Shown: piece after piece, positions 39,333-50,677 of the stretch
Layout of the letters: each line of letters starts with the position of its first letter
Numbering within the stretch: the stretch's first letter is position 1
Origin: Escherichia coli
Lineage (GTDB): Bacteria > Pseudomonadota > Gammaproteobacteria > Enterobacterales > Enterobacteriaceae
DNA length: 64,000 bases
Assembly (NCBI RefSeq): GCF_022846255.1
Contig: NZ_AP025682.1
Strand: one strand, 5' to 3'
Made by a program: the position numbers and the translations under genes
The notes under the pieces: model-generated
The model's database searches: none
Seen by the model: the letters and a program-made list of their open reading frames with translations, nothing else
Told to the model about the DNA's origin: nothing

Positions 39333-40217
39333 GGGATGAAGATGAGATGATTCGCAGGCCTGGGTAATAGTTGGAAAACAACGTCCGTTCCTGGCACAGA
39401 GCAGACCATCGGACTAAACTGAAGGTCCTCTCTGTGCGAGAAACGGAAGTTAGCAATTGTGATACAGACGTGGGGCATTACTCGCTTTACAGTGTGTTAA
39501 TCAATTGGAAACAGGTCAGAATTTATTGGGTGGAATGACACCTTTAAACTTCTTGCGCATCGCAAGGAATATCTCCACCAGACGGTAAGACAGTAGATTG
39601 CGCCACAAGTCCTCAGAATGCCCTTTGCTGGGTTAACCACACGTCGTAATCATCCTTCCAGTGCAGCGGATCAAGATCCGTAATGCTCATAGTCACGCGA
39701 TTTCAAATACAAGCCCAGTGGTGTTATCCGTGAGCTGGACAGTGCTTCCGGCAACATGACTGAGACAGACAAAAAATCAGTTAGTACAGCATTGACTCAG
39801 GTTGAGCAGGAGTTAAAACAAACTGGGCTGGAGCAGTAGAAGCCTGCAGTGAATTCCCTGAATCAGGCGATTAAGTTGGCTTAAGAGTCCGTGTATGCCA
39901 TGTGCCGCGAGATGTCGTGCTATACGTGAAAGTCAGCGATATATATCGTTTTGAAGATGATTTAGGTTACGGGAGTGTCTCTGGGTGATGTATTACTTCA
40001 TCGACATCGGCTACGCACGGGTTGCCGCGATGCAGCGGATGGAAGCTGTCTGGGAAAAGAAAGCTCCGCTTGCTAATATTAGTACATCCGATGAAAAATC
40101 GTGTGTGAAAGTTGCAGATTCGTAATATACTAATGAAGAATGGAGATGTATTTTATATAATAAAAACATCTAAGTAGAGCTTTTTATTTTAAATCCTTCA
40201 TTATTACTGGAGATTTT

Positions 40218-41996
40218 ATGGGTTTTTATAATGACGCACTGAGTAAAATATATAGTGAAGATGATGATTTCCTAATTATAGGATTAACAGGGAGGACGGG
40301 GTCAGGCTGTTCAACAGTTTCTAATATACTGTCATCAGAATCAAGTGAGATAAAGCATTCTCTATTTAACGGTGATTACCCTAAGTCGAATGAAGAAAGA
40401 AAAGAGCGGGTTCTATTTAAATATTTTTCCGTGTCATGGGTTCCATTTATAAAGATACAAGCAAGTTCCATACTGACATTGTGTTTATCAAAGGACTTTG
40501 ATGGTAAGCTGAATAAATTTATTCGGGAAGTGACGGAGTTAGGTAATGACCAAAGAATCCTAGAGTCAACAGTTAATGATCTTGAATCTATACTAAAAGA
40601 AATTAAAGCTAAAGATGAAAGCTCTGATCATGATATAGATGATAAGATAAAATTCATAAATGAATATCTAATAAAAGCGAATACACAAATTAAATCCATA
40701 TTTAAGAACAAGGCTGACTATATAAAACTATATCAAGCTATAGGTAATAATTATAGATCTAGTGGGATGTACCATGACAGTTCATTTAGTGATGATTTCC
40801 ATGGTTTTTTTCTTCCTAAAAAAATAAATGATATAATTCAAAGATTAAGAACCTTAGCAAAAGAAAAGAACACAAAAACTGGAGAAAAGAAACCTATTTA
40901 TATAGTTATTGATGCTATAAGAAATCCGTTCGAAGCAACATACTTCCAAGATAGATACTCATCATTTTATTTAATGGCTGTTTCTACAGAAGAGCATTAC
41001 AGGCATCAAAGGCTTAGAGAACAAGGTTTAACTGATGCTGAGATAAAAGATATTGATGCAAAAGAATACCGTAAATCATCTTTGGATGAGAAGTCATCAT
41101 ATATATATCAGAATATACAGTCTTGTTTAGAAATATCAGACATCTATGTTGAGAATCCGGAAGAGGAAAATGTTGTTTGTCGGTACTCAGGATTGGCTAA
41201 TCAATTAATTAAATTCACTTCATTAATGAAGCGTCCCGGTATAATAACTCCATCAAATGTTGAACGTTGCATGCAGATAGCATATACAGCTAAGTTGAAC
41301 TCTGGTTGTATATCCAGGCAGGTAGGCGCTGCAGTATCTGATAGTTCATTTTCAATTAAGTCTATTGGTTGGAATGATGTACCAAGTGGTCAAGTTCCTT
41401 GCTCTTTAAGGGATAGGTTTGATTTGTCTGAGGGGATTGATGATATTGCTTACTCTGAATTCGAAAAGAACGAAAATAGTTTCATTCGAAAAATAGATAG
41501 CACTAAGATTATTTTTTTAGATGTTAAAAATAAAGGAATGAGAGCTCCATTTTGTTTTAAAACAGAATGGAATAATATCCTTGATGATAAATACAAAGAA
41601 GATCTACGGGTCGAGCATAAGTTAAATGATGATGAGTTTGCTATTATTGACAAAATAAAGTCTAACGCTAATCAAGTTTTTACAAGATCACTTCATGCTG
41701 AAGAGAATGCTTTCTTACAAATATCTAAGTATGGTGGCGTTGGTATACAGAATGGTTTTTTGTTCACAACAGCAAGCCCTTGTGAATTATGTTCTAAAAA
41801 AGCGTATCAATTAGGGATCAAACAAATATATTACATAGATCCATACCCTGGTATAGCAATGAGGAATATTTTAAACGCAGGGAGCAATAAACCATTGCTT
41901 AAGCTTTTCAATGGTGCAATAGGTAAGGCATTCCATAATTTTTACACGCCAAGAATGGCTTATAAAGATGAGCTTTCAGCAAGATCTAGGGGGTGA
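40218..41996 (+). CDS. Two-domain P-loop NTPase / dCMP-cytidine deaminase protein (AvcD / kinase-Dcd-like anti-phage candidate)
   Basis: 592-aa ORF with GGAG Shine-Dalgarno. N-terminus has Walker-A-like GLTGRTGSGCST. C-terminus has HAEENA (about 41694) and PCELC (about 41778) zinc-binding deaminase motifs. Strongly AT-rich, with about 0.8 kb non-coding on each side. Confidence 0.7.
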   Translation: MGFYNDALSKIYSEDDDFLIIGLTGRTGSGCSTVSNILSSESSEIKHSLFNGDYPKSNEERKERVLFKYFSVSWVPFIKIQASSILTLCLSKDFDGKLNKFIREVTELGNDQRILESTVNDLESILKEIKAKDESSDHDIDDKIKFINEYLIKANTQIKSIFKNKADYIKLYQAIGNNYRSSGMYHDSSFSDDFHGFFLPKKINDIIQRLRTLAKEKNTKTGEKKPIYIVIDAIRNPFEATYFQDRYSSFYLMAVSTEEHYRHQRLREQGLTDAEIKDIDAKEYRKSSLDEKSSYIYQNIQSCLEISDIYVENPEEENVVCRYSGLANQLIKFTSLMKRPGIITPSNVERCMQIAYTAKLNSGCISRQVGAAVSDSSFSIKSIGWNDVPSGQVPCSLRDRFDLSEGIDDIAYSEFEKNENSFIRKIDSTKIIFLDVKNKGMRAPFCFKTEWNNILDDKYKEDLRVEHKLNDDEFAIIDKIKSNANQVFTRSLHAEENAFLQISKYGGVGIQNGFLFTTASPCELCSKKAYQLGIKQIYYIDPYPGIAMRNILNAGSNKPLLKLFNGAIGKAFHNFYTPRMAYKDELSARSRG

Positions 41997-42797
41997 AAAT
42001 ATTGATACAGGTAAAGGCAACGAACCAGAAATGCTCGAGACTATTCTGGCTAAGTCTGCCGGGCGATAAGCACGAGTGCATATGCTGTTCCAAAAGTCTT
42101 CTATTCAATAAATTACGAAGTGCTAACTAACTGACCATGTACAATAAGAACAAATCGCCTTGAATTGCTCTTGATTGAATGGTGAAGAATTATGAGGGTG
42201 ATAGTCCTTACCACCCTCAATTAAAATTAAAGGTATTTACGTGAGAAATTTTTCTTAACCACACTACTAATAAAACTATTTAGTCCATGCCCATCCTGGG
42301 CTAGCGCTTTCATCTTAGAGACCGTTGAAGCACCCAGTTTTGTAGAATCGTAACGTATTTCCATCCATCTTTAAACTGTACTGTGATAACATCGGGAGTA
42401 ATCTCATAAAACACTATTCCCGAATTACCGCCTTAATTAGCATAAGTTGGCATTTTTAATTCTTATTAAATTATTGCAGCAAGTCGCTGCACTCTAGTCA
42501 TATGACCCCATGCTAAACCTAATTGTTGAGCTAAGTCATAATTTCGATTATTTGATGAACGTAAGTTATTTGACAGGCAGAATTAACCATACACAGTAAT
42601 ATCCGTTTCTGGCACATAGCAGTCCTATAGATAGTGGCATACAGTCATAGATGGTCGATTGGAGGAGGTGCAAATTCTCCCATACAAAAAATACGTAAAA
42701 TCAATAACAGCTGGAAATTATTTAATAATCAAATTATCGGAAGTTCACCAGCCAGCCGCAGTATTCTGCCACGACAAGTTGCTGCGGCTTTTTATGT

Positions 42798-43085
42798 TTA
42801 ACGGATAAACAGCCAGACCAGCAGACACGCCACCGCGGGCACCGCAAAATCCATCAGACTTGCCACATCCCATGCACGAGGATCAAAACCGCCCCACCAC
42901 GGCATGTTAATCCGCTTGCCATGCCCGAACATTTCAATCCAGCGATATTCTGCCTGGGTGTGTTCACGCGCAATGAAGAACGTACAACCGGCTATCGCCC
43001 CGTAAGCCCAGTTTCCGGTAAAAAGACCAATCAGTAGCTGCGCAGCCACAGCACAAAGTGCATGAAGGAAAGGTGTTATATCCAT
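42798..43085 (-). CDS. Small hydrophobic hypothetical protein (prophage tail-fibre-distal region)
   Basis: Start placed at the ATG preceded by AAAGGAGGA (MDITPFLHAL...). Two predicted hydrophobic segments. Function unknown. Confidence 0.5.
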   Translation of the reverse strand: MDITPFLHALCAVAAQLLIGLFTGNWAYGAIAGCTFFIAREHTQAEYRWIEMFGHGKRINMPWWGGFDPRAWDVASLMDFAVPAVACLLVWLFIR

Positions 43086-43098
43086 TACTCCTCCTTTA

Positions 43099-43800
43099 TC
43101 AGATATCACTTCGGGAAGTTGATAACAACTTTAATTCTGACTCAAGTTCATCAACTCTTTCAGTCAGTTTCTGGATATGGTGAATCAGTGGAACAACCAG
43201 ACGTTCGTACATTACACCTTCGACAACAAGGCCATTGCTGGAAATAGCTTCAGGAGCATCATCTTCGTTAGCTGGTCGCCAGTGTACAAACTGAGGAGCA
43301 ATTTCTCCCACTTCCTCGGCAATCAATCCGTAGAATCCCCAGTCACTCCTGTCATTTTCGCATTGCGACCTGTACCACACAGGGCGCATCCTGAAAATGA
43401 GATCGGCGTGCTCTGAATCTATTGTCTCTACTGAATGTTTATAGCGAATAGACGATGTTGACCGCAGTACAGACGAAATTGCAGGGTCAGGATTAAGATA
43501 AAGATTTGCCGCCGCTGTAGTCGTGCCCAATTCCCATAAATAAAACGCTTCACGGCCAGTCAGCGGGTAAAAATCTCCACCATAACGACCGCTTTCCAGA
43601 TCGTTCACTTCCAGTTTGTTTTTCAGCTTATTATCAACTTCAGTTTTTGTGTATCTGGTGCTGATATCCTGCTTTGCACTGGTCATATCAGTCTGAAGCG
43701 TTGATACTTTTCCGTTAATTGAGGAAATATCTTCCTTAGTTTTACTGACATCTCCCTTTAGCGTGGTGATATCTCCTGGAATTACTGTCGATGTAGCCAT
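43099..43800 (-). CDS. Tail-fibre-associated protein with C-terminal intramolecular-chaperone-like domain
   Basis: 233-aa ORF with coiled-coil-like N-terminal half and C-terminal segment (GLIAEEVGEIAPQFV...ERLVVPLIHHIQKL) resembling the Peptidase_S74 / tail-fibre chaperone domain. Downstream of stf. Confidence 0.55.
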   Translation of the reverse strand: MATSTVIPGDITTLKGDVSKTKEDISSINGKVSTLQTDMTSAKQDISTRYTKTEVDNKLKNKLEVNDLESGRYGGDFYPLTGREAFYLWELGTTTAAANLYLNPDPAISSVLRSTSSIRYKHSVETIDSEHADLIFRMRPVWYRSQCENDRSDWGFYGLIAEEVGEIAPQFVHWRPANEDDAPEAISSNGLVVEGVMYERLVVPLIHHIQKLTERVDELESELKLLSTSRSDI

Positions 43801-43809
43801 TTGTCTCCC

Positions 43810-44091
43810 TCACATCCAGCCACGAAGTTGATGCTCAACAACAACCGCATATTTATCGAATATTGACGATTTTTTTGCATCATTAATGATGCGCACGTTT
43901 ACAAAATATCCGTCTTCCTTAACACATACCGGTTCGCCATCTTCAGTCAGTTCTCCGGTTTCTTTGTACACGTTACCTATCACGTCAATAAGAATATTAT
44001 CCTGCATCGACTCGTCATCATAATAGCCAGTGCTCTCCATAAAGGCCGAAAAGTCGGCCCTGTCTGCAAATTTGAGTGTTAAATCTTTCAT
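43810..44091 (-). CDS. Hypothetical 93-aa acidic protein
   Basis: ORF tightly packed between stf and the next gene. No recognisable motif. Confidence 0.45.
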   Translation of the reverse strand: MKDLTLKFADRADFSAFMESTGYYDDESMQDNILIDVIGNVYKETGELTEDGEPVCVKEDGYFVNVRIINDAKKSSIFDKYAVVVEHQLRGWM

Positions 44092-46472
44092 TAGATTGAC
44101 TCCCCCACCTGAGCATCAGTCAATGCCTTGTGCCATATTCTGAAATTCCTGACATGACCAAATAAATGACGTAACCCGGCAGTAGTCTGGCCTCCAATAC
44201 GGATAATTGCGGTGTTCTGAATACAGGACCATGTGGTTTTTGTTTCGCTGGATATACGCCCGTTACTTACTGAGCACGTAGACTGATCTGACTTTACACG
44301 CATCCCCATAACCATTTTTTCAAGCGATGCGTTTTCGTTTACCCGTCTGTTAGCTCCTCCAATATCGCAATAAGGAAATCCGTCGTAATCTGTTGAACGA
44401 CCGAAGCCAAGAATAATAGCCGCTCCGGTTTGATGACCGCCGGTGTCAAAAACACGCGGAGCTGCATTTGGCGTTTTATACCAGTTCTTATGTACCTCAC
44501 AAAGAACCGTAAAAGGAAGATTATAAAGATTATTCTTAATGGGAACTGTAACTATATCGCTTGCGCGGGTCGCCGCCGTCGTTCCTGATATAATAAAAGA
44601 TGATACACAAGGCCCATTTTCTACTTGTGGGGTGGCCAGATAAATATAGTCACCAGATACGGTTGCCCCGCCCTGCTTAGGAGAATACTGTATCTGAGAA
44701 CCTATTTTTAACTCCCCATCAATTGCCTGAATTGTTGCCTCTGCAAAAATCCATCCGGTAGCTTCGTCCTTTCTGACTCTCGCAGTAATCCTTGAGGCAG
44801 CACCGCCTGTCATATTAATTTCAAGCGTTTGTGTATCAATATACGCATCACCAAGAAAAGTTGTTGCGCTACCGTCATATTTATCAAACCGGATACGCAA
44901 CCTTACCTGCAGTTCTGTTTTAAAACGACATGAGGTTGTCACGTGTTTATTATCGCCTGAGACATCAACTGACTTTGTTGCAGCAATTGATGCCATATTA
45001 ATGGCTGAGGTTTGCCCAATCAGAGAATCGTTGCAGACAAACTTTCCATAGGTAAAACCAAAACTATCCGTCCCTGTTTCGGGCACATCCATATTTGACG
45101 ATCGCCCCCAACTGGCAGGGTTTTCCGAATTGAGCATGTAGTTTGTTCTTTGCCCCTCAATAAGCAGGCCATCACGTTCAAACCGTGGCTCGTCAATGGC
45201 AGCCTCTGTCAGCACACCAGATTTATTAATGTAAGTTGCTTTTGATGCGCGTTTAAACTTTACAACCTTATCGCCAGGCATCGTTATTTCATCATCACCA
45301 ATAACAATCTTTTTATATGACGGCGAAAAGCCCGTAATCATATCCAGTGAATCGTTAAACGGTATCCACACATCGGGAAGCGGCTGCAATACTTGTTTAT
45401 ACGGCTCCGCAGCCTGGCTTGCATACTCTCTGGCTGCGTCTTCACTTGCTTTTGCAGCCGTCTGGCTTGCAGCGGATGCTTTCGCCGAGTTAGCCGCCGC
45501 AGTCTCGCTCGCCTTTGCGTTGGTTTCACTGGTTTTTGCAGCTTTTTGACTGTTGGCTGATGCAGTGGCAGAAGCAGCCGCCGCGCTTGCAGAGCCAGCT
45601 GCAGCACTCTCGCTTTCGGCTGCTGCATCCTGACTGCTTTTCGCCGCAGTTTCACTGGCTTTGGCATTCGTTTCGCTGGTTTTCGCTGCCGTCTGGCTGG
45701 ACTTTGCGTTGGTTTCGCTGGTTTTTGCAGCTTTTTGACTGTTGGCTGATGCAGTGGCAGAAGAAGCCGCCGCACTTGCAGAACCAGCTGCAGCACTCTC
45801 GCTTTCGGCTGCTGCATCCTGACTGCTTTTCGCCGCAGTTTCACTGGCTTTGGCATTCGTTTCGCTGGTTTTCGCTGCCGTCTGGCTGGACTTTGCGTTG
45901 GTTTCGCTCGTCTTTGCGGCTGTCTCGCTGTTTTTCGCATTGGTTTCTGATTTTTTGGCTGCTGTCGCGGAGTTTGCCGATGCAGTCTGTGAGGTCGCTG
46001 CCGCCTGTGCGCTGTTAGCTGCATTCGTTTCTGAGGTTTTCGCCGCGTTCTTCGATGATGCCGCTGCAGTTTCGGATTTCTTTGCCGCCGCTGCGCTCTG
46101 AGAGGCGGCTTCGGCGTTGCGTGCCGCTTCTTCCACCATTTCCTGAAAACGGCGCAATGCCTCCGGCATGACATCATCTTCCGTCATGGCACCGAGAAAA
46201 TCATTCAGCGTCCCCGGACTGGAACCTTCATAGACGGTAATGGTCCCAACATGTGATGGCTGAGAACCCTCAATCCACAGGATGACGCTGTACTGACCAT
46301 ACTCAACGTCCATACTGTAACGCCCGGCTTCATCAGGATTTTCAGAGGTCACCGTGTTCACCAATACCGTGGTGCTGTTACGCTTTGCCTTCAGTTGAAT
46401 AGTGCAGTTCTGTATTGGTTTTCCCGCACCATCTTTCAGCACACCTGAGATTTTTACTGCTGCCATATCCAC
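44091..46472 (-). CDS. stf: Lambda-like side tail fibre protein Stf
   Basis: N-terminus MAAVKISGVLKDGAGKPIQNCTIQLKAKRNSTTVLVNTVTSENPDEAGRYSMDVEYGQYSV matches lambda Stf. Long Ala/Ser/Thr/Lys-rich repeat region and a divergent C-terminal domain. Confidence 0.9.
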   Translation of the reverse strand: MDMAAVKISGVLKDGAGKPIQNCTIQLKAKRNSTTVLVNTVTSENPDEAGRYSMDVEYGQYSVILWIEGSQPSHVGTITVYEGSSPGTLNDFLGAMTEDDVMPEALRRFQEMVEEAARNAEAASQSAAAAKKSETAAASSKNAAKTSETNAANSAQAAATSQTASANSATAAKKSETNAKNSETAAKTSETNAKSSQTAAKTSETNAKASETAAKSSQDAAAESESAAAGSASAAASSATASANSQKAAKTSETNAKSSQTAAKTSETNAKASETAAKSSQDAAAESESAAAGSASAAAASATASANSQKAAKTSETNAKASETAAANSAKASAASQTAAKASEDAAREYASQAAEPYKQVLQPLPDVWIPFNDSLDMITGFSPSYKKIVIGDDEITMPGDKVVKFKRASKATYINKSGVLTEAAIDEPRFERDGLLIEGQRTNYMLNSENPASWGRSSNMDVPETGTDSFGFTYGKFVCNDSLIGQTSAINMASIAATKSVDVSGDNKHVTTSCRFKTELQVRLRIRFDKYDGSATTFLGDAYIDTQTLEINMTGGAASRITARVRKDEATGWIFAEATIQAIDGELKIGSQIQYSPKQGGATVSGDYIYLATPQVENGPCVSSFIISGTTAATRASDIVTVPIKNNLYNLPFTVLCEVHKNWYKTPNAAPRVFDTGGHQTGAAIILGFGRSTDYDGFPYCDIGGANRRVNENASLEKMVMGMRVKSDQSTCSVSNGRISSETKTTWSCIQNTAIIRIGGQTTAGLRHLFGHVRNFRIWHKALTDAQVGESI
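45530..45890. repeat. Tandem direct repeat (about 180 bp x 2) inside stf
   Basis: Near-identical 180-nt units starting about 45538 and 45718, encoding a repeated 60-aa Ala/Ser/Thr/Lys-rich block. Confidence 0.75.
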
Positions 46473-46530: not shown

Positions 46531-47130
46531 TCAGAACTTATAACCGACACCCACGATGAAACCGTCAGTGCGCCAGTCGCCACTGCCGGAGCCTTCATAA
46601 GCAATATCAATGGCCACGGATTCGGTCGGGTTAAACTGCACGCCAGCTCCCCACGCCAGAGACGTGTTGCTGTGGCGATCGTCATCACTTCCGGTCAGCA
46701 CATCGTGCGTTTTCCCCTTGTTGTCAGTTACGCGGAGATAATCCCCGGAGAACGTCGAAACACGGCTGTAAGCCACACCTGCCATCGCATAAGCACTGAA
46801 CCATTCATTCACGCGTACAGATGGCCCCGCCATCATGCTGAACCAGCGGTTACGCACTGAATCTTCATGCCAGCGGGTATCGCTGTAATGCGTTTTTTGC
46901 TCATCTTTGGCATTGGCATAACTGAATGACGTCACCAGCCCCAGCGTGTCCGTAAACTCATAACGGTATTTCACGTTAATCCCGTTCAGATCATCGCTGC
47001 CTGGCATATCAGTATGGGTCTGAAGATACCCGGCGCTTAGTGTGGACTGATGCTCTGCTGCGCTTGCTGGCGTACCAGCGGCAACCAGCCAGACTACTGC
47101 GGACAGAATAACAGCACATAATTTACGCAT
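46531..47130 (-). CDS. lom: Lom outer-membrane protein (Ail/PagC/OmpX family)
   Basis: 199-aa ORF with signal peptide and beta-barrel character, between J and stf as in lambda. Confidence 0.9.
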   Translation of the reverse strand: MRKLCAVILSAVVWLVAAGTPASAAEHQSTLSAGYLQTHTDMPGSDDLNGINVKYRYEFTDTLGLVTSFSYANAKDEQKTHYSDTRWHEDSVRNRWFSMMAGPSVRVNEWFSAYAMAGVAYSRVSTFSGDYLRVTDNKGKTHDVLTGSDDDRHSNTSLAWGAGVQFNPTESVAIDIAYEGSGSGDWRTDGFIVGVGYKF

Positions 47131-47197: not shown

Positions 47198-50100
47198 TCA
47201 GCTGATACTGATGCCTGCGGTGGCTTTCTTCATCACCACAACCAGCAAATCGCTGATACTTGCTGTGGGATACCAGTCATTTACCAGCCATGCTGACACC
47301 GAAAACTCCAGCGTCATGTGACCGTGACCGGCAGGCATATCAATAACGCCACTGTAAATCAGCGTATTATCCAACGCGGTACGGTTATAAATTTCAGCAC
47401 CGTTTTTCCGCACTATCAGACGGCATGAGGAGTAAATATCAGTATGCTCTCTCTCATGTTTAGCGCCGCTGAATGCCACCGCCGGAATAACAATCTGCCG
47501 GTCAAACGGCTGATCGTCATAAATCCTGACGGTAATGGTCCCTGATGGCCACCGTTCCGGTGCACGGGAGTCCCGGGGGAAAGCTTTGCCCACTGTTTTA
47601 ACGAGATCGCCTTCAATCTGGTTCGCGGACAGTTTTCCCAGAACCCGGCAGTTCTCGTTAATCGTGACGTTGTTGAGCGTCCCGGAGTTCGCATTCACGT
47701 TACCGCTGATATCGGCATTTTTCGCCGTCAGCCGCCCGTCCGGTGTCAGGGAAAATGCCGGAGGATTACCGCCGCTGGTAATGGTGGGAGCCGTCAGATA
47801 TTTCAGGAACACTTCGTTCATGAATATCTGATCGCCCTGACCAACAAACATCGGCTTTGTGTTGCCATTTGCAGGATTAACCATCGCAATCCTGTCCGCC
47901 GCCAGCAGCACCTGACTCTGCATGCCGTCAGGGGTGTTCTCAATACCGGCACCAATACCCGCGATATAAAGGCGTCCGTCCCGCATCTGCTGCAGCTTCA
48001 CAGCCCACATGCTGTTCAGGTTATTATTTGTATCAACCTGAACCTTCTGTATCTGCTGAATTGCCGCACTCTGGTCTTCCAGTTTCTTATTGACGGTCTG
48101 CGTGATTTCATTGCTGACACCCGTAATGGACGTCCTGATTTCAGCCAGGTCAGGCGCAAGCTGACCGTTATCAATCTGCGTCCACAACTCCTGAGCCAGA
48201 TGGGTTTTCCCTATCTCTCCTTTGAAAAAATTCAGATAGCCGGATGCATCATCACTCGGCTGGCCAACAGCCTCCACAAATGCCGATTTGCCAACGGTGT
48301 TCACACTGCGGATGTAAAAATAATAATCATGGCCCGGTTTGATATTGATACTGGCGGCTATCCAGTACAGCGCCGTGCCAAGATAGCGTGCTGTGGTTTC
48401 AACCTGCCTGATATCCGCAATCCGCTTTTCCGAGAACCAGAACTCAAACTGTACCGTCGGATCATAAACCGCAAGATGCGGCGTGGCGGTTATCTGAAAA
48501 TACCCCGGTGTCAGCTCAATCTGCGACGGCGCTGCCGGTGCGGCAATCCGGAACGATACCGATGCCGGATCGCCCTGCTGCCCCCACGCATTTACCGCCC
48601 GGACTGTCAGCCTGTAGTTCCCCAGCGCCAGTTGCCTGAAGCGGTATGTGGTTTCCGTCGTCCGGGCCATGCTGACCAGCCGCTCACTGCCGTCGTCCGC
48701 TGCCACGGTAAGGCGAAGCAGGAAGCTCACGCCCTTCACCACCTTCGGCGTGTCCCATCGCGCCAGCACCTGATATTCCCCGCTGTCTGCGGTGACTTCG
48801 GCGGTCAGGTGCTGCACCGCTGGCGGCGTGACACCATTCACCGTGCCGCTCTGGTCGCCGTCAAAGTGCGCCCCGTTATCCACGATGGCTTCTTTTTCCG
48901 GTACATGCTGCACGGCGGTGATGGCATACGTACCGTCATCGTTCTCCCGGATACTCACACAGCGGAACAGGCGCTGGCGCAGCGTCGGCAGCTTCAGCCC
49001 CCATACGCTGTATTCAGCAACACCGTCAGGAACACGGCTCACTTTCACCTTCACGCCGTCGGTGACGGACTGAACCTCCACGCTGACCGGACTCCCCTGC
49101 CCGTCAACCAGGCTTATCAGCGTGGTGCCGGAGGATGGCAGCGTGATTTCACGGTCGAGCGTCAGCGTCCGGGTCTGGCTGTTTACCGCCAGCACGCGCC
49201 CGCCGGTGCTGATACCGGCATAGTCATCATCACAGATTTCAATGACATCGCCCGGCACATGGCGAAGCCCTTCTGCGCCCACGCTGAAGTCCACGGTCTG
49301 CGTTTCCAGCAGTTCTGTTTTAATCAGCCACAGCCCGGCGCGGTGTGCCTGCCCCCGGCTGGTACAGCCAAAAGCATCCATCTTCGTGACGTTACGACCG
49401 TAACGGGCAATGGCCTGCGTGTCCTCCACAAGCTCTGTCGCCGTCTCCCAGCCGTTGTTCGGGTCAATCCAGTTCACCTCAACGGCATTATGGCGGTCTT
49501 TCAGGGCGCTGAAGCTGTAGCGGAACGGCGCGCCATCATCCGGCATCACCACATTACTGCGGTTATAGGTCCACACCTTATCCGACGGTCGGTCCTGCAC
49601 GAACGTCAGCGTCTGCCCGTTCCATACCGGCATACAGCGCATCGCCGAGCAGAAATCACTGAGCACATCCCACGCCTTGCGCTGTGTGGTCAGGTACGCA
49701 TTACAGGTGATGCGCGGCTCCGTGCCGCCAAAACCGTCCGGCACTGACTGGTCGCAATACTGGCCGATGACATACAGCGCCCATTTATCCACATCTGCCG
49801 CACCAAGACGTTTCCCCATGCCGTAGCGCGGGTGGGTCAGCATATCCCACAGACACCAGGCCATGTTGTTGCTGTATGCTGGCTTAAACGTTCCGTCCCA
49901 GATACCGCTGTATTGCCGCGTCTGCGGGTTATAGTTCGACGGCACCTGCAGAATACGCCCGCGCAGATGATAATTACGGCTCACCTGCTGGCTGCCGAAC
50001 TGCTCCGAATCCACCTGCACGCCGACCAGTGCCGTGTTCGGGTAGCACTGTTTCACATCGATGATTTCGGTGTATGACGACCAGAGCGTTTTGTTCTGCA

Positions 50101-50677
50101 GCTGGTCTGTGGTGCTGTCCGGCGTCATCCTGCGCATCCGGATATTAAACGGGCGCGGCGGCAGGTTATCCACCACCACCGAGGCCAGATACTGCGAGGT
50201 GGTTTTGCCCTTAATGGTGATGTCTTTTTCCGTCACCCAGCCACCGTTACGTTGTATCTGAACCAGCAGGCGGACTTCCGATGGATTCCTGTCCCCCTTT
50301 GAGGTGGTTTCCACCAGTGCCTGCACACCGAAGGTAAAGCGCAGACGGTCGATGTTTGCCGACGTGATGGTGCGGGTGATCGGCGTGTCGTATTTCACTT
50401 CCGTACCCAGCACCGTCTCGGAACCGGAGGATTCAAATCCCTCCGGCGGTGTCTGCTCCTGCTCACCTGCCCGGAACACCACCGTGACACCGGAGATGTT
50501 GGTATTCCCCTCACTGTCCAGCACCGGCGTACTGTTCAGCAGCACGCTTTTTAATCCATCCACCGGACCTTCAACCGGCCCTTCACTGATGGCATCAATC
50601 ACACTCAGCAACTGCGTGGATTTCAGGTTGTCCTTCGCTTCGCGCGGGGTATGCCCCTTACTGCTGCCTTTACCCAT
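47198..50677 (-). CDS. J: Tail tip / host-specificity protein J
   Basis: 1159-aa ORF. The N-terminal about 800 aa match lambda J closely. The C-terminal receptor-binding part diverges. Confidence 0.95.

Follow-up and report, generated by a model that had tools for sequence, protein, structure and literature searches.

Siphovirus lateral fibres have been described in BASEL as consisting of one, two or more proteins, of which only the far N-termini are conserved (PMC8594841). In IrisVonRoten, Gp22 was predicted to form the proximal fibre, from which a galectin-like C-terminal domain protrudes, and Gp24 a T-shaped distal fibre that possesses an intramolecular chaperone and is attached to Gp22, as modelled with AlphaFold-Multimer (PMC11990801). 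Rcc01080 of RcGTA, in turn, acts as a single flexible subunit that binds the capsule (PMC7296036, PMC10218006). In this study, we analyzed the genes downstream of the side tail fibre gene stf in a prophage of Escherichia coli, located within a stretch of 64,000 nucleotides (nt) of contig NZ_AP025682.1 (assembly GCF_022846255.1; hereafter, the window), where three small genes, designated p93, p233 and p95, stand in the place of the lambda tfa gene. IrisVonRoten Gp22 and Gp24 were found to be homologues of Stf and p233, respectively, and Gp23 that of p93. Since BASEL describes these homologous proximal and distal fibres, the two-segment module was already known in outline; p93 and p95, for their part, are not discussed in the BASEL papers or in those on Gifsy-1, Ur-lambda and receptor prediction. 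In carrying a widespread, tfa-free two-segment lateral-fibre module followed by a probable membrane moron, the locus is largely ordinary. We consider it probable that stf, p93, p233 and p95 constitute one late operon for a side tail fibre of two segments and, behind it, a protein of the host envelope (Table 1).

Table 1. Positions within the window of the fibre operon, its parts and its neighbors
Feature	Position	Strand	Description
J	47198-50677	-	upstream of lom
lom	46531-47130	-	between J and stf; 45% identity to lambda Lom
stf	44091-46472	-	793 amino acids; probable proximal side tail fibre
Stf shaft tandem repeat	45495-45921	-	189 bp (63 amino acids), 2.3 copies; Tandem Repeats Finder 94% matches, score 770
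Stf C-terminal module	44094-45425	-	amino acids ~350-793; like the RcGTA head-spike fibre; presumably Tfa-independent
p93	43810-44091	-	93 amino acids, acidic; phrog_1361
p233	43099-43800	-	233 amino acids; S74 chaperone at the C-terminus
p233 N-terminal docking peptide (putative)	43723-43800	-	codons 1-26; MATSTVIPGDITTLKGDVS; fits the distal-fibre motif
p233 S74 domain	43102-43455	-	codons 116-233; Ser116/Lys121 dyad, C-terminal coiled helix
p95	42798-43085	-	95 amino acids from ATG, hydrophobic; phrog_1443; last gene of the operon
Anti-phage deoxycytidine triphosphate (dCTP) deaminase	40218-41996	+	592 amino acids; N-terminal P-loop, C-terminal cytidine deaminase domain; GC content 0.27-0.38
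Probable prophage-chromosome junction with attachment (att) core	39381-39406		prophage-free E. coli chromosomes homologous up to 39406; SF-468 prophage arm homologous from 39381 on

Gene order and junctions downstream of stf

As shown in Table 1, the genes were found on the minus strand in the order J, lom, stf, p93, p233 and p95, the last three as intact open reading frames; this is the lambda order minus tfa, and the proposal of the initial annotation that three small genes replace tfa downstream of stf was thus borne out. The absence of tfa itself was corroborated by a tblastn search of the whole window with lambda Tfa, which gave no match (best E value 0.42), and none of the three proteins matched the Tfa family (Caudo_TAP) in Pfam, NCBIfam and PHROG scans. 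The stop codon of stf and the start codon of p93 overlap (TAATG) behind GGGGGAG, p233 starts 10 nt past the p93 stop with the Shine–Dalgarno sequence GGGAG, and the ATG of p95 lies 14 nt past the p233 stop with AGGAGG as its Shine–Dalgarno sequence. The junctions between stf, p93, p233 and p95 are those of one operon. As to the third small gene, an alternative GTG at position 43109 would give a product of 103 amino acids instead of the 95 from the ATG at 43085; because AGGAGG precedes the latter and phrog_1443 aligns from residue 9, the ATG is the real start.

The median ratios of nonsynonymous to synonymous substitution rates (dN/dS) against alleles from other prophages were 0.29, 0.14 and 0.14 for p93, p233 and p95, respectively, and these values demonstrated that all three are real genes under purifying selection. 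The exact sequences of the three proteins have already been recorded in E. coli, and part of the 1.9-kb region is carried by 1892 of the 5426 complete E. coli genomes, with at least 80% of it being present in 236 of them. In RefSeq, the genes of the cassette are labelled 'tail fiber domain-containing protein', 'prophage tail fiber N-terminal domain-containing protein' and, in two cases, 'hypothetical proteins'.

Beyond the p95 stop, an AT-rich stretch of ~580 bp with no convincing open reading frame extends (42193-42797) as far as a terminator-like hairpin on the minus strand (42219-42193), which has an 11-bp stem followed by TAATTCTTCA. The hairpin at 42755-42788, just past the p95 stop, was not called a terminator because it was no better than shuffled sequences (z -1.1) and lacks a U-run.

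Stf and the putative fibre proteins p93 and p233

The N-terminal portion of Stf is of the lambda type, namely, residues 5-134 form the attachment domain (Pfam phage_tail_N, PF08400, E 2e-63), within which residues 5-97 were matched to 9e7m, a solved fragment of the lambda tail fibre (E 3.5e-46), and identity to lambda orf-401, the N-terminal part of lambda Stf, amounts to 57.6%. The alignment with phrog_1419 extended across 793/793 positions, and the shaft was revealed to be an Ala-rich repeat region; two long antisense and off-frame open reading frames (45338-46177 and 45515-46018) are by-products of the 189-bp tandem repeat within it (Table 1). The C-terminus of Stf had initially been called divergent, and indeed lambda orf-314 (the Stf C-terminus) gave no tblastn match in the whole window; an alignment profile of the C-terminal module matched Rcc01080 instead (PDB 6tb9, E 2.7e-18, Stf residues ~390-650), and NCBIfam GTA_spike_fiber scored 52.6 bits against a cut-off of 36. 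A LamG label for the Stf tip, suggested by its C-terminal motif, found no confirmation in Pfam and was replaced by the Rcc01080 homology. Between divergent alleles, residues 354-453 (83-91%) and the last 40 residues (74-78%) are conserved, and residues 454-753 are variable (40-69%), these latter presumably binding the receptor. No homologue of a trans-chaperone was found to accompany the Rcc01080-like domain. By analogy with Rcc01080, each Stf chain would end in a self-folding polysaccharide-binding domain, and the absence and dispensability of tfa would be explained by the folding of this domain without a trimerizing chaperone, as the single-subunit nature of Rcc01080 suggests.

The product of p93 has an isoelectric point of 4.37, with 19 Asp and Glu against 10 Lys and Arg residues, in agreement with its original description as acidic. 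Although it was assigned to phrog_1361 with an E value of 2.6e-46, no functional family was found for it in the Pfam, NCBIfam, PHROG and PADLOC scans, its profile matched no Protein Data Bank (PDB) sequence including the RcGTA spike base, and its fold gave no informative match upon comparison. The AlphaFold2 (AF2) model displayed a small beta-alpha-alpha-beta4 domain with a predicted local distance difference test score (pLDDT) of 84 and a predicted template modelling score (pTM) of 0.70.

A tblastn search with p93 retrieved 181 phage records, and among the matches listed the gene is located directly after a tail or lateral-fibre gene. These records span lambda-like phages, Drexlerviridae (tunus, KarlJaspers), Dhillonvirus (rolling), Nonagvirus (ESCO3, JenP2), T5-like phages (IrisVonRoten) and rV5-like myoviruses (EmilHeitz). 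In each of the loci examined closely (9/9), the fibre encoded upstream terminates in a module homologous to Stf ~350-793, with 38-76% identity to the fibres of IrisVonRoten, tunus, rolling, JenP2, ESCO3 and EmilHeitz, and 20 of 24 diverse p93 representatives are followed after 3-13 nt by the start of a distal fibre gene, the products of which share the N-terminal motif M[AVT]T[SKVL]T[VIN]IPxDIxxLK, range from 151 to 586 amino acids and are otherwise unrelated. The exceptions are the Lambda_2E9-type clade, in which p95 directly follows p93, and the rV5-like phages; p93 accompanies the Stf C-terminal module throughout, even in these loci that have no distal fibre. The arrangement is thus not peculiar to this prophage; the same conserved multi-gene lateral-fibre module, which had been noticed before, occurs in virulent coliphages (PMC11990801, PMC8594841).

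In 80 prophage loci from IMG/VR, the order Stf-p93-distal fibre-p95 and the spacing are fixed, p93 remains 89-100% identical while identity of the Stf C-terminal domain ranges from 100% down to 38%, and two distal alleles (233/234 and 346 amino acids), which have only the first ~28 residues in common, assort independently. In addition, the virulent Nonagvirus ESCO3 possesses a 95%-identical DNA block that begins ~300 nt before the end of stf, includes p93 and stops around codon 22 of the distal gene. This pattern of conservation therefore identified the joint, consisting of the Stf end, p93 and the distal N-terminus, as the conserved unit, with variable receptor-binding parts on either side. 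The swapped tip/chaperone cassette that had been envisaged thus stands insofar as this is a recombining fibre cassette, with respect to both the Stf C-terminal domain and the two distal alleles, and falls insofar as there is no single unit substituting for Tfa. In the isolated phage Lambda_4C10 (L002, 2139-4555), stf is disrupted near its 3' end by an IS66-type element, which comprises three genes labelled 'mobile element protein', whereas p93 and p95 downstream are intact. Downstream of the module, Lambda_4C10 and Lambda_2E9 both carry sitABCD as cargo.

In p233, for which a C-terminal segment resembling an intramolecular chaperone had been reported, Pfam recognized Peptidase_S74 (PF13884) in residues 116-172 with 26.7 bits against the gathering cut-off of 22, thereby substantiating that report. 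The phmmer matches of p233 were the L-shaped fibre of DT57C (8hqz_d, E 2e-7) and MYRF (7dc3). Ser116 of p233 aligned with an Ala of the MYRF structure, which we take to be the mutated catalytic Ser, and Lys121 aligned with the MYRF Lys located five residues after the catalytic position; the corresponding S[SD]xR[YL]K is kept in 13 of 15 aligned distal fibres. Upstream of this domain is a coiled coil bearing 'TRYTKTEVDNKL' shaft repeats, followed by a tip of ~50 residues, so that the mature subunit, composed of the docking peptide, the coiled coil and the tip, would comprise ~115 residues as judged from the sequence. The S74 domain of p233 would serve p233 itself rather than Stf, and p233 is most probably a separate, short distal fibre.

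Since p233 aligned to positions 1147-1384 of the 1385-position phrog_3299 as well as to the C-termini of other long-fibre PHROGs, the gene might be regarded as the decayed 3' remnant of a long fibre gene that has lost its function. Such decay is, however, highly improbable. The gene has its own ATG and Shine–Dalgarno sequence, and its product begins with the N-terminal motif of complete distal fibres. Full-length homologues of 200-245 amino acids with 57-61% identity occur in many virulent Drexlerviridae, whose genomes are compact, and the p233 cluster has 2928 members, with 13 of the 15 listed being 233-234 amino acids long. Because of these homologues, this conserved length and the dN/dS value given above, together with the intact gene signals, the remnant explanation was rejected.

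The data on the three proteins were further weighed against a scheme in which p93 is an analog of Tfa and p233 an S74 chaperone acting in trans on the Stf tip, neither of them being a fibre segment. Such roles are suggested by the location of p93 in the exact tfa position with translational coupling to stf, by its presence with the Stf C-terminal module even in loci that lack a distal fibre, by the fact that more than half of p233 is chaperone domain with a mature part of just ~115 amino acids, and by the annotation of KarlJaspers bas06_0035 as a chaperone. Nevertheless, comparison of the p93 profile with lambda Tfa by hhalign gave a probability of 0.1%, in line with the absence of a Caudo_TAP match. 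S74 domains, such as those of endosialidase and T5 pb1, act in cis and are then cleaved off, which also speaks against action on Stf. Moreover, the N-terminal peptide of p233 is common to plain fibres of 330-586 amino acids, including IrisVonRoten Gp24, the BASEL distal fibre (PMC11990801), and Rcc01080, to which the Stf C-terminal domain is homologous, needs no partner subunits for its function in RcGTA, where it acts singly (PMC7296036). We thus regard this substitution for Tfa as unlikely.

In the two-segment fibre that we favor instead, Stf would be the proximal fibre, attached to the tail tip by its lambda-type N-terminus and continuing through the Ala-rich shaft to a polysaccharide-binding domain at each chain end. 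p93 would be synthesized by translational coupling with Stf and, as its conservation and position suggest, would be an accessory of the fibre joint, most likely a stabilizer or cap for the Stf distal end and an aid in docking the distal fibre, although it may also be a purely transient chaperone. The N-terminal peptide of p233, ~20 residues long, would dock on the Stf/p93 joint. Given the domain and the dyad observed in p233, its S74 chaperone is expected to trimerize p233 and then to cleave itself off at or next to Ser116; cleavage and docking are both putative steps.

The membrane protein p95

Like its earlier description as hydrophobic, which was confirmed by a grand average of hydropathy (GRAVY) of 0.57, the AF2 model of p95 (pLDDT 97.9), with helices at residues 4-23, 26-53 and 74-94, was consistent with a small membrane protein. 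The family comprises 342 clusters at 50% identity, all of them stand-alone proteins of ~90-110 amino acids, in which R40, E41, Q44, A45, E46 and W72 are invariant and H8, R58 and P83 nearly invariant. No match to p95 was found in Pfam, PHROG functions, NCBIfam or PADLOC, and a literature search for 'Ybl63', the UniProt name of one relative, yielded nothing. Based on its charge distribution, p95 would be a three-helix protein of the inner membrane, the conserved 40-73 segment with its invariant polar cluster probably facing the cytoplasm.

The annotations of the virulent-phage modules examined show no p95 after the distal fibre, and no virulent genus with the fibre module is among the p95 tblastn matches listed. 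Members of the family were instead found behind unrelated receptor-binding genes, namely, after the tailspike in P22-like JEP4, after the tailspike, the O-acetylase OafA and a fibre fragment in P22-like 611R6, after Tfa in the P2-like Halomonas phage phiHAP-1, and after a beta-helix tailspike in a metagenome contig. To survey the family in bacteria, one genome per species was scanned with a 12-sequence alignment, as the 75-sequence alignment was too diverse, and 93 loci with the motif [TA]QAEYRWI were obtained, of which 80 were kept. A quarter or so of the latter (25/80) lie within 5 kb of Poly_export, Capsule_synth (kpsC/S), kpsD, KpsF or KdsB-type genes, and 15/80, mostly from Sphingomonadales, are located no more than 125 bp from a Poly_export or Capsule_synth gene. 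In 11/80, the neighbors include phage J or Stf-C-terminal-like genes, and in five loci (three from Comamonas, one from Pantoea and one from Chelativorans) a Stf-C-terminal-like gene lies within 1.6 kb upstream.

The Sphingomonadales genes are situated inside capsule loci of the 3-deoxy-D-manno-octulosonic acid (Kdo) type (L205-L262; for example L208 5980-6309, L213 3218-3535 and L220 5998-6333), with Poly_export, Capsule_synth (KpsC/S), KpsF, KdsB, GT2 and sulfatase-type genes as neighbors, often less than 125 bp away, which suggests that p95-family genes are a conserved component of such loci that has so far gone undescribed. The beta- and alpha-proteobacterial prophages of Comamonas (L187, L199 and L202) and Chelativorans (L203), respectively, encode stand-alone Stf-C-terminal (Rcc01080-like) proteins of ~400-490 amino acids. 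In the Comamonas loci, J is followed by a gene for a 250-amino-acid protein, the Stf-C-terminal-like gene and, 0.6-1.6 kb further on, the p95 homologue, which in L199 and L202 is preceded by a 188-amino-acid open reading frame; in L203, p95 comes directly after the Stf-C-terminal-like gene. These four loci contain neither p93 nor the Ala-rich shaft.

Its three helices and its length of ~95 amino acids, which is the size of class I holins, together with co-transcription with late genes, would fit p95 as a phage lysis or assembly factor, either holin-like or involved in fibre export, rather than a host-envelope moron; partial homologues in large virulent phages and a weak Phage_holin_8 match (E 0.0036) in 1 of 75 family members point in the same direction. 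However, apart from that single match p95 showed no holin family match, its sequence ends directly after helix 3 with no charged C-terminal tail, and the invariant polar RE-x2-QAE...W is unlike holins. In addition, homologues reside within bacterial capsule loci with no phage genes nearby, and the virulent phages examined that carry the same fibre module lack p95. A lysis or assembly role is accordingly quite unlikely.

These observations favored the alternative that had been raised in the initial annotation, namely, a membrane-acting moron, as the better reading of p95, given its absence from the virulent modules, its position behind unrelated receptor-binding genes and its occurrence in capsule loci. 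p95 is probably not a virion component but a moron that acts on the host envelope and is carried behind receptor-binding genes. Its target is plausibly the assembly of surface glycans, and in the host this would most likely take the form of receptor masking or superinfection exclusion. A broader proposition can be put forward only tentatively: p95 would represent an undescribed family of ~95-amino-acid three-helix membrane proteins with the RE-x2-QAE...W cluster, native to Kdo-type capsule loci, which temperate phages of alpha-, beta- and gamma-proteobacteria would have captured repeatedly and placed directly behind polysaccharide-binding receptor-binding genes, and which would alter or block the glycan receptor of the fibre for superinfection exclusion or progeny protection; in parallel, p93 would be a new fibre-joint protein that links monomeric lectin-type tips to a trimeric distal fibre.

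Several points weigh against the interpretation of the operon as a two-segment fibre with a trailing host-envelope protein. The presence of p93 in the virion is putative, as is the docking of p233 on Stf, which rests on the AlphaFold-Multimer models of a homologue (PMC11990801), and Pfam called no lectin domain in the C-terminal region of Stf. Support for the joint from a mirror-tree comparison, in which pairwise distances of p93 correlated with those of the distal N-terminus (Spearman r 0.66) better than with those of Stf segments (0.27-0.43; 0.42 for the adjacent Stf end), is uncorrected for phylogeny and linkage and suggestive only. Homologues of p233 bear the label 'putative lateral tail fiber chaperone' in BASEL. 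With regard to p95, 44 of the 80 genomic contexts were unclassified, partial p95-like matches occur in large virulent phages, and there is no evidence of its expression in lysogens.

Surroundings, significance and comparison with known systems

The dCTP deaminase gene (Table 1) was identified by PADLOC dCTPase with 423 bits and by NCBIfam NF041025 with 370.7 bits, just under the cut-off of 400. Lying between the end of the prophage and the fibre operon, the gene represents cargo, and its RefSeq label in strain SF-468 is 'hypothetical'.

For annotation, the analysis means that the absence of tfa from E. coli prophages with such an Stf is no defect, and that the 'hypothetical' genes downstream are conserved parts of the fibre module, roughly one in three complete E. 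coli genomes carrying part of the cassette. The joint, comprising the last ~40 residues of Stf, p93 and the first ~25 residues of the distal fibre, provides natural recombination breakpoints that may be of use in designing chimeric fibres of the lambda type. Both p93 and p95 represent abundant and strongly conserved families for which structures were predicted with confidence, and from the link between p95 and capsule loci it may be learned, in a way open to testing, how a temperate phage deals with the glycans that its fibres recognize as receptors.

Among the closest described counterparts is IrisVonRoten, in which bas32_0022, bas32_0023 and bas32_0024 have the same three-gene order with overlapping or tight junctions. 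Its proximal fibre is 52% identical to Stf across 744 amino acids and its p93 homologue 37% identical to p93, and its distal fibre has the same N-terminal motif and S74 end; however, the latter consists of 574 amino acids, as opposed to 233 here, with a predicted T shape and two receptor-binding domains, and the phage is virulent and lacks p95. The closest relatives of p233 outside prophages were found in Drexlerviridae (tunus_81-83 and KarlJaspers bas06_0037-0035). The tunus fibre is 76% identical across Stf 246-793 and its p93 50% identical, and the KarlJaspers trio is annotated as 'lateral tail fiber protein / hypothetical protein / putative lateral tail fiber chaperone'. These fibres differ from Stf in having an N-terminus for a different tail, and neither lom nor p95 is present.

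With Stf/Tfa of lambda (Ur-lambda), the locus shares a homologous N-terminal attachment domain, part of the shaft and the position after J and lom, but lambda has a single-segment fibre that needs a trans-chaperone, and its orf-314 and Tfa are without counterpart here. RcGTA Rcc01080/GhsB (PDB 6tb9, 6tsu), a capsular polysaccharide binder, is homologous to Stf ~390-650. In contrast to Stf, it attaches to capsid pentons through a Leu-Gly peptide at its N-terminus and is not fused to a trimeric tail-fibre shaft. To our knowledge, RcGTA has neither a p93 nor a distal fibre.

The DT57C structure 8hqz shares with p233 the S74 domain, the Ser-Lys dyad and 'TxYTKTEVD' shaft repeats, and attachment of a second fibre protein to the first has been described for T5 pb1 and DT57C LtfA/LtfB (PMC10743462). 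Nevertheless, T5 pb1, the DT57C fibres and endosialidase are ~1000 amino acids or longer, compared with the ~115 predicted for mature p233, and the putative N-terminal attachment peptide of p233 is different. Finally, Cor, T5 Llp, gtrABC and the oac/OafA genes of P22-like phages resemble p95 in their placement, last after the receptor-binding genes and beside int/att. p95, a small membrane protein, has no relation to any of them in sequence or fold, and unlike those masking and seroconversion genes, members of its family also reside in Kdo-type capsule loci.

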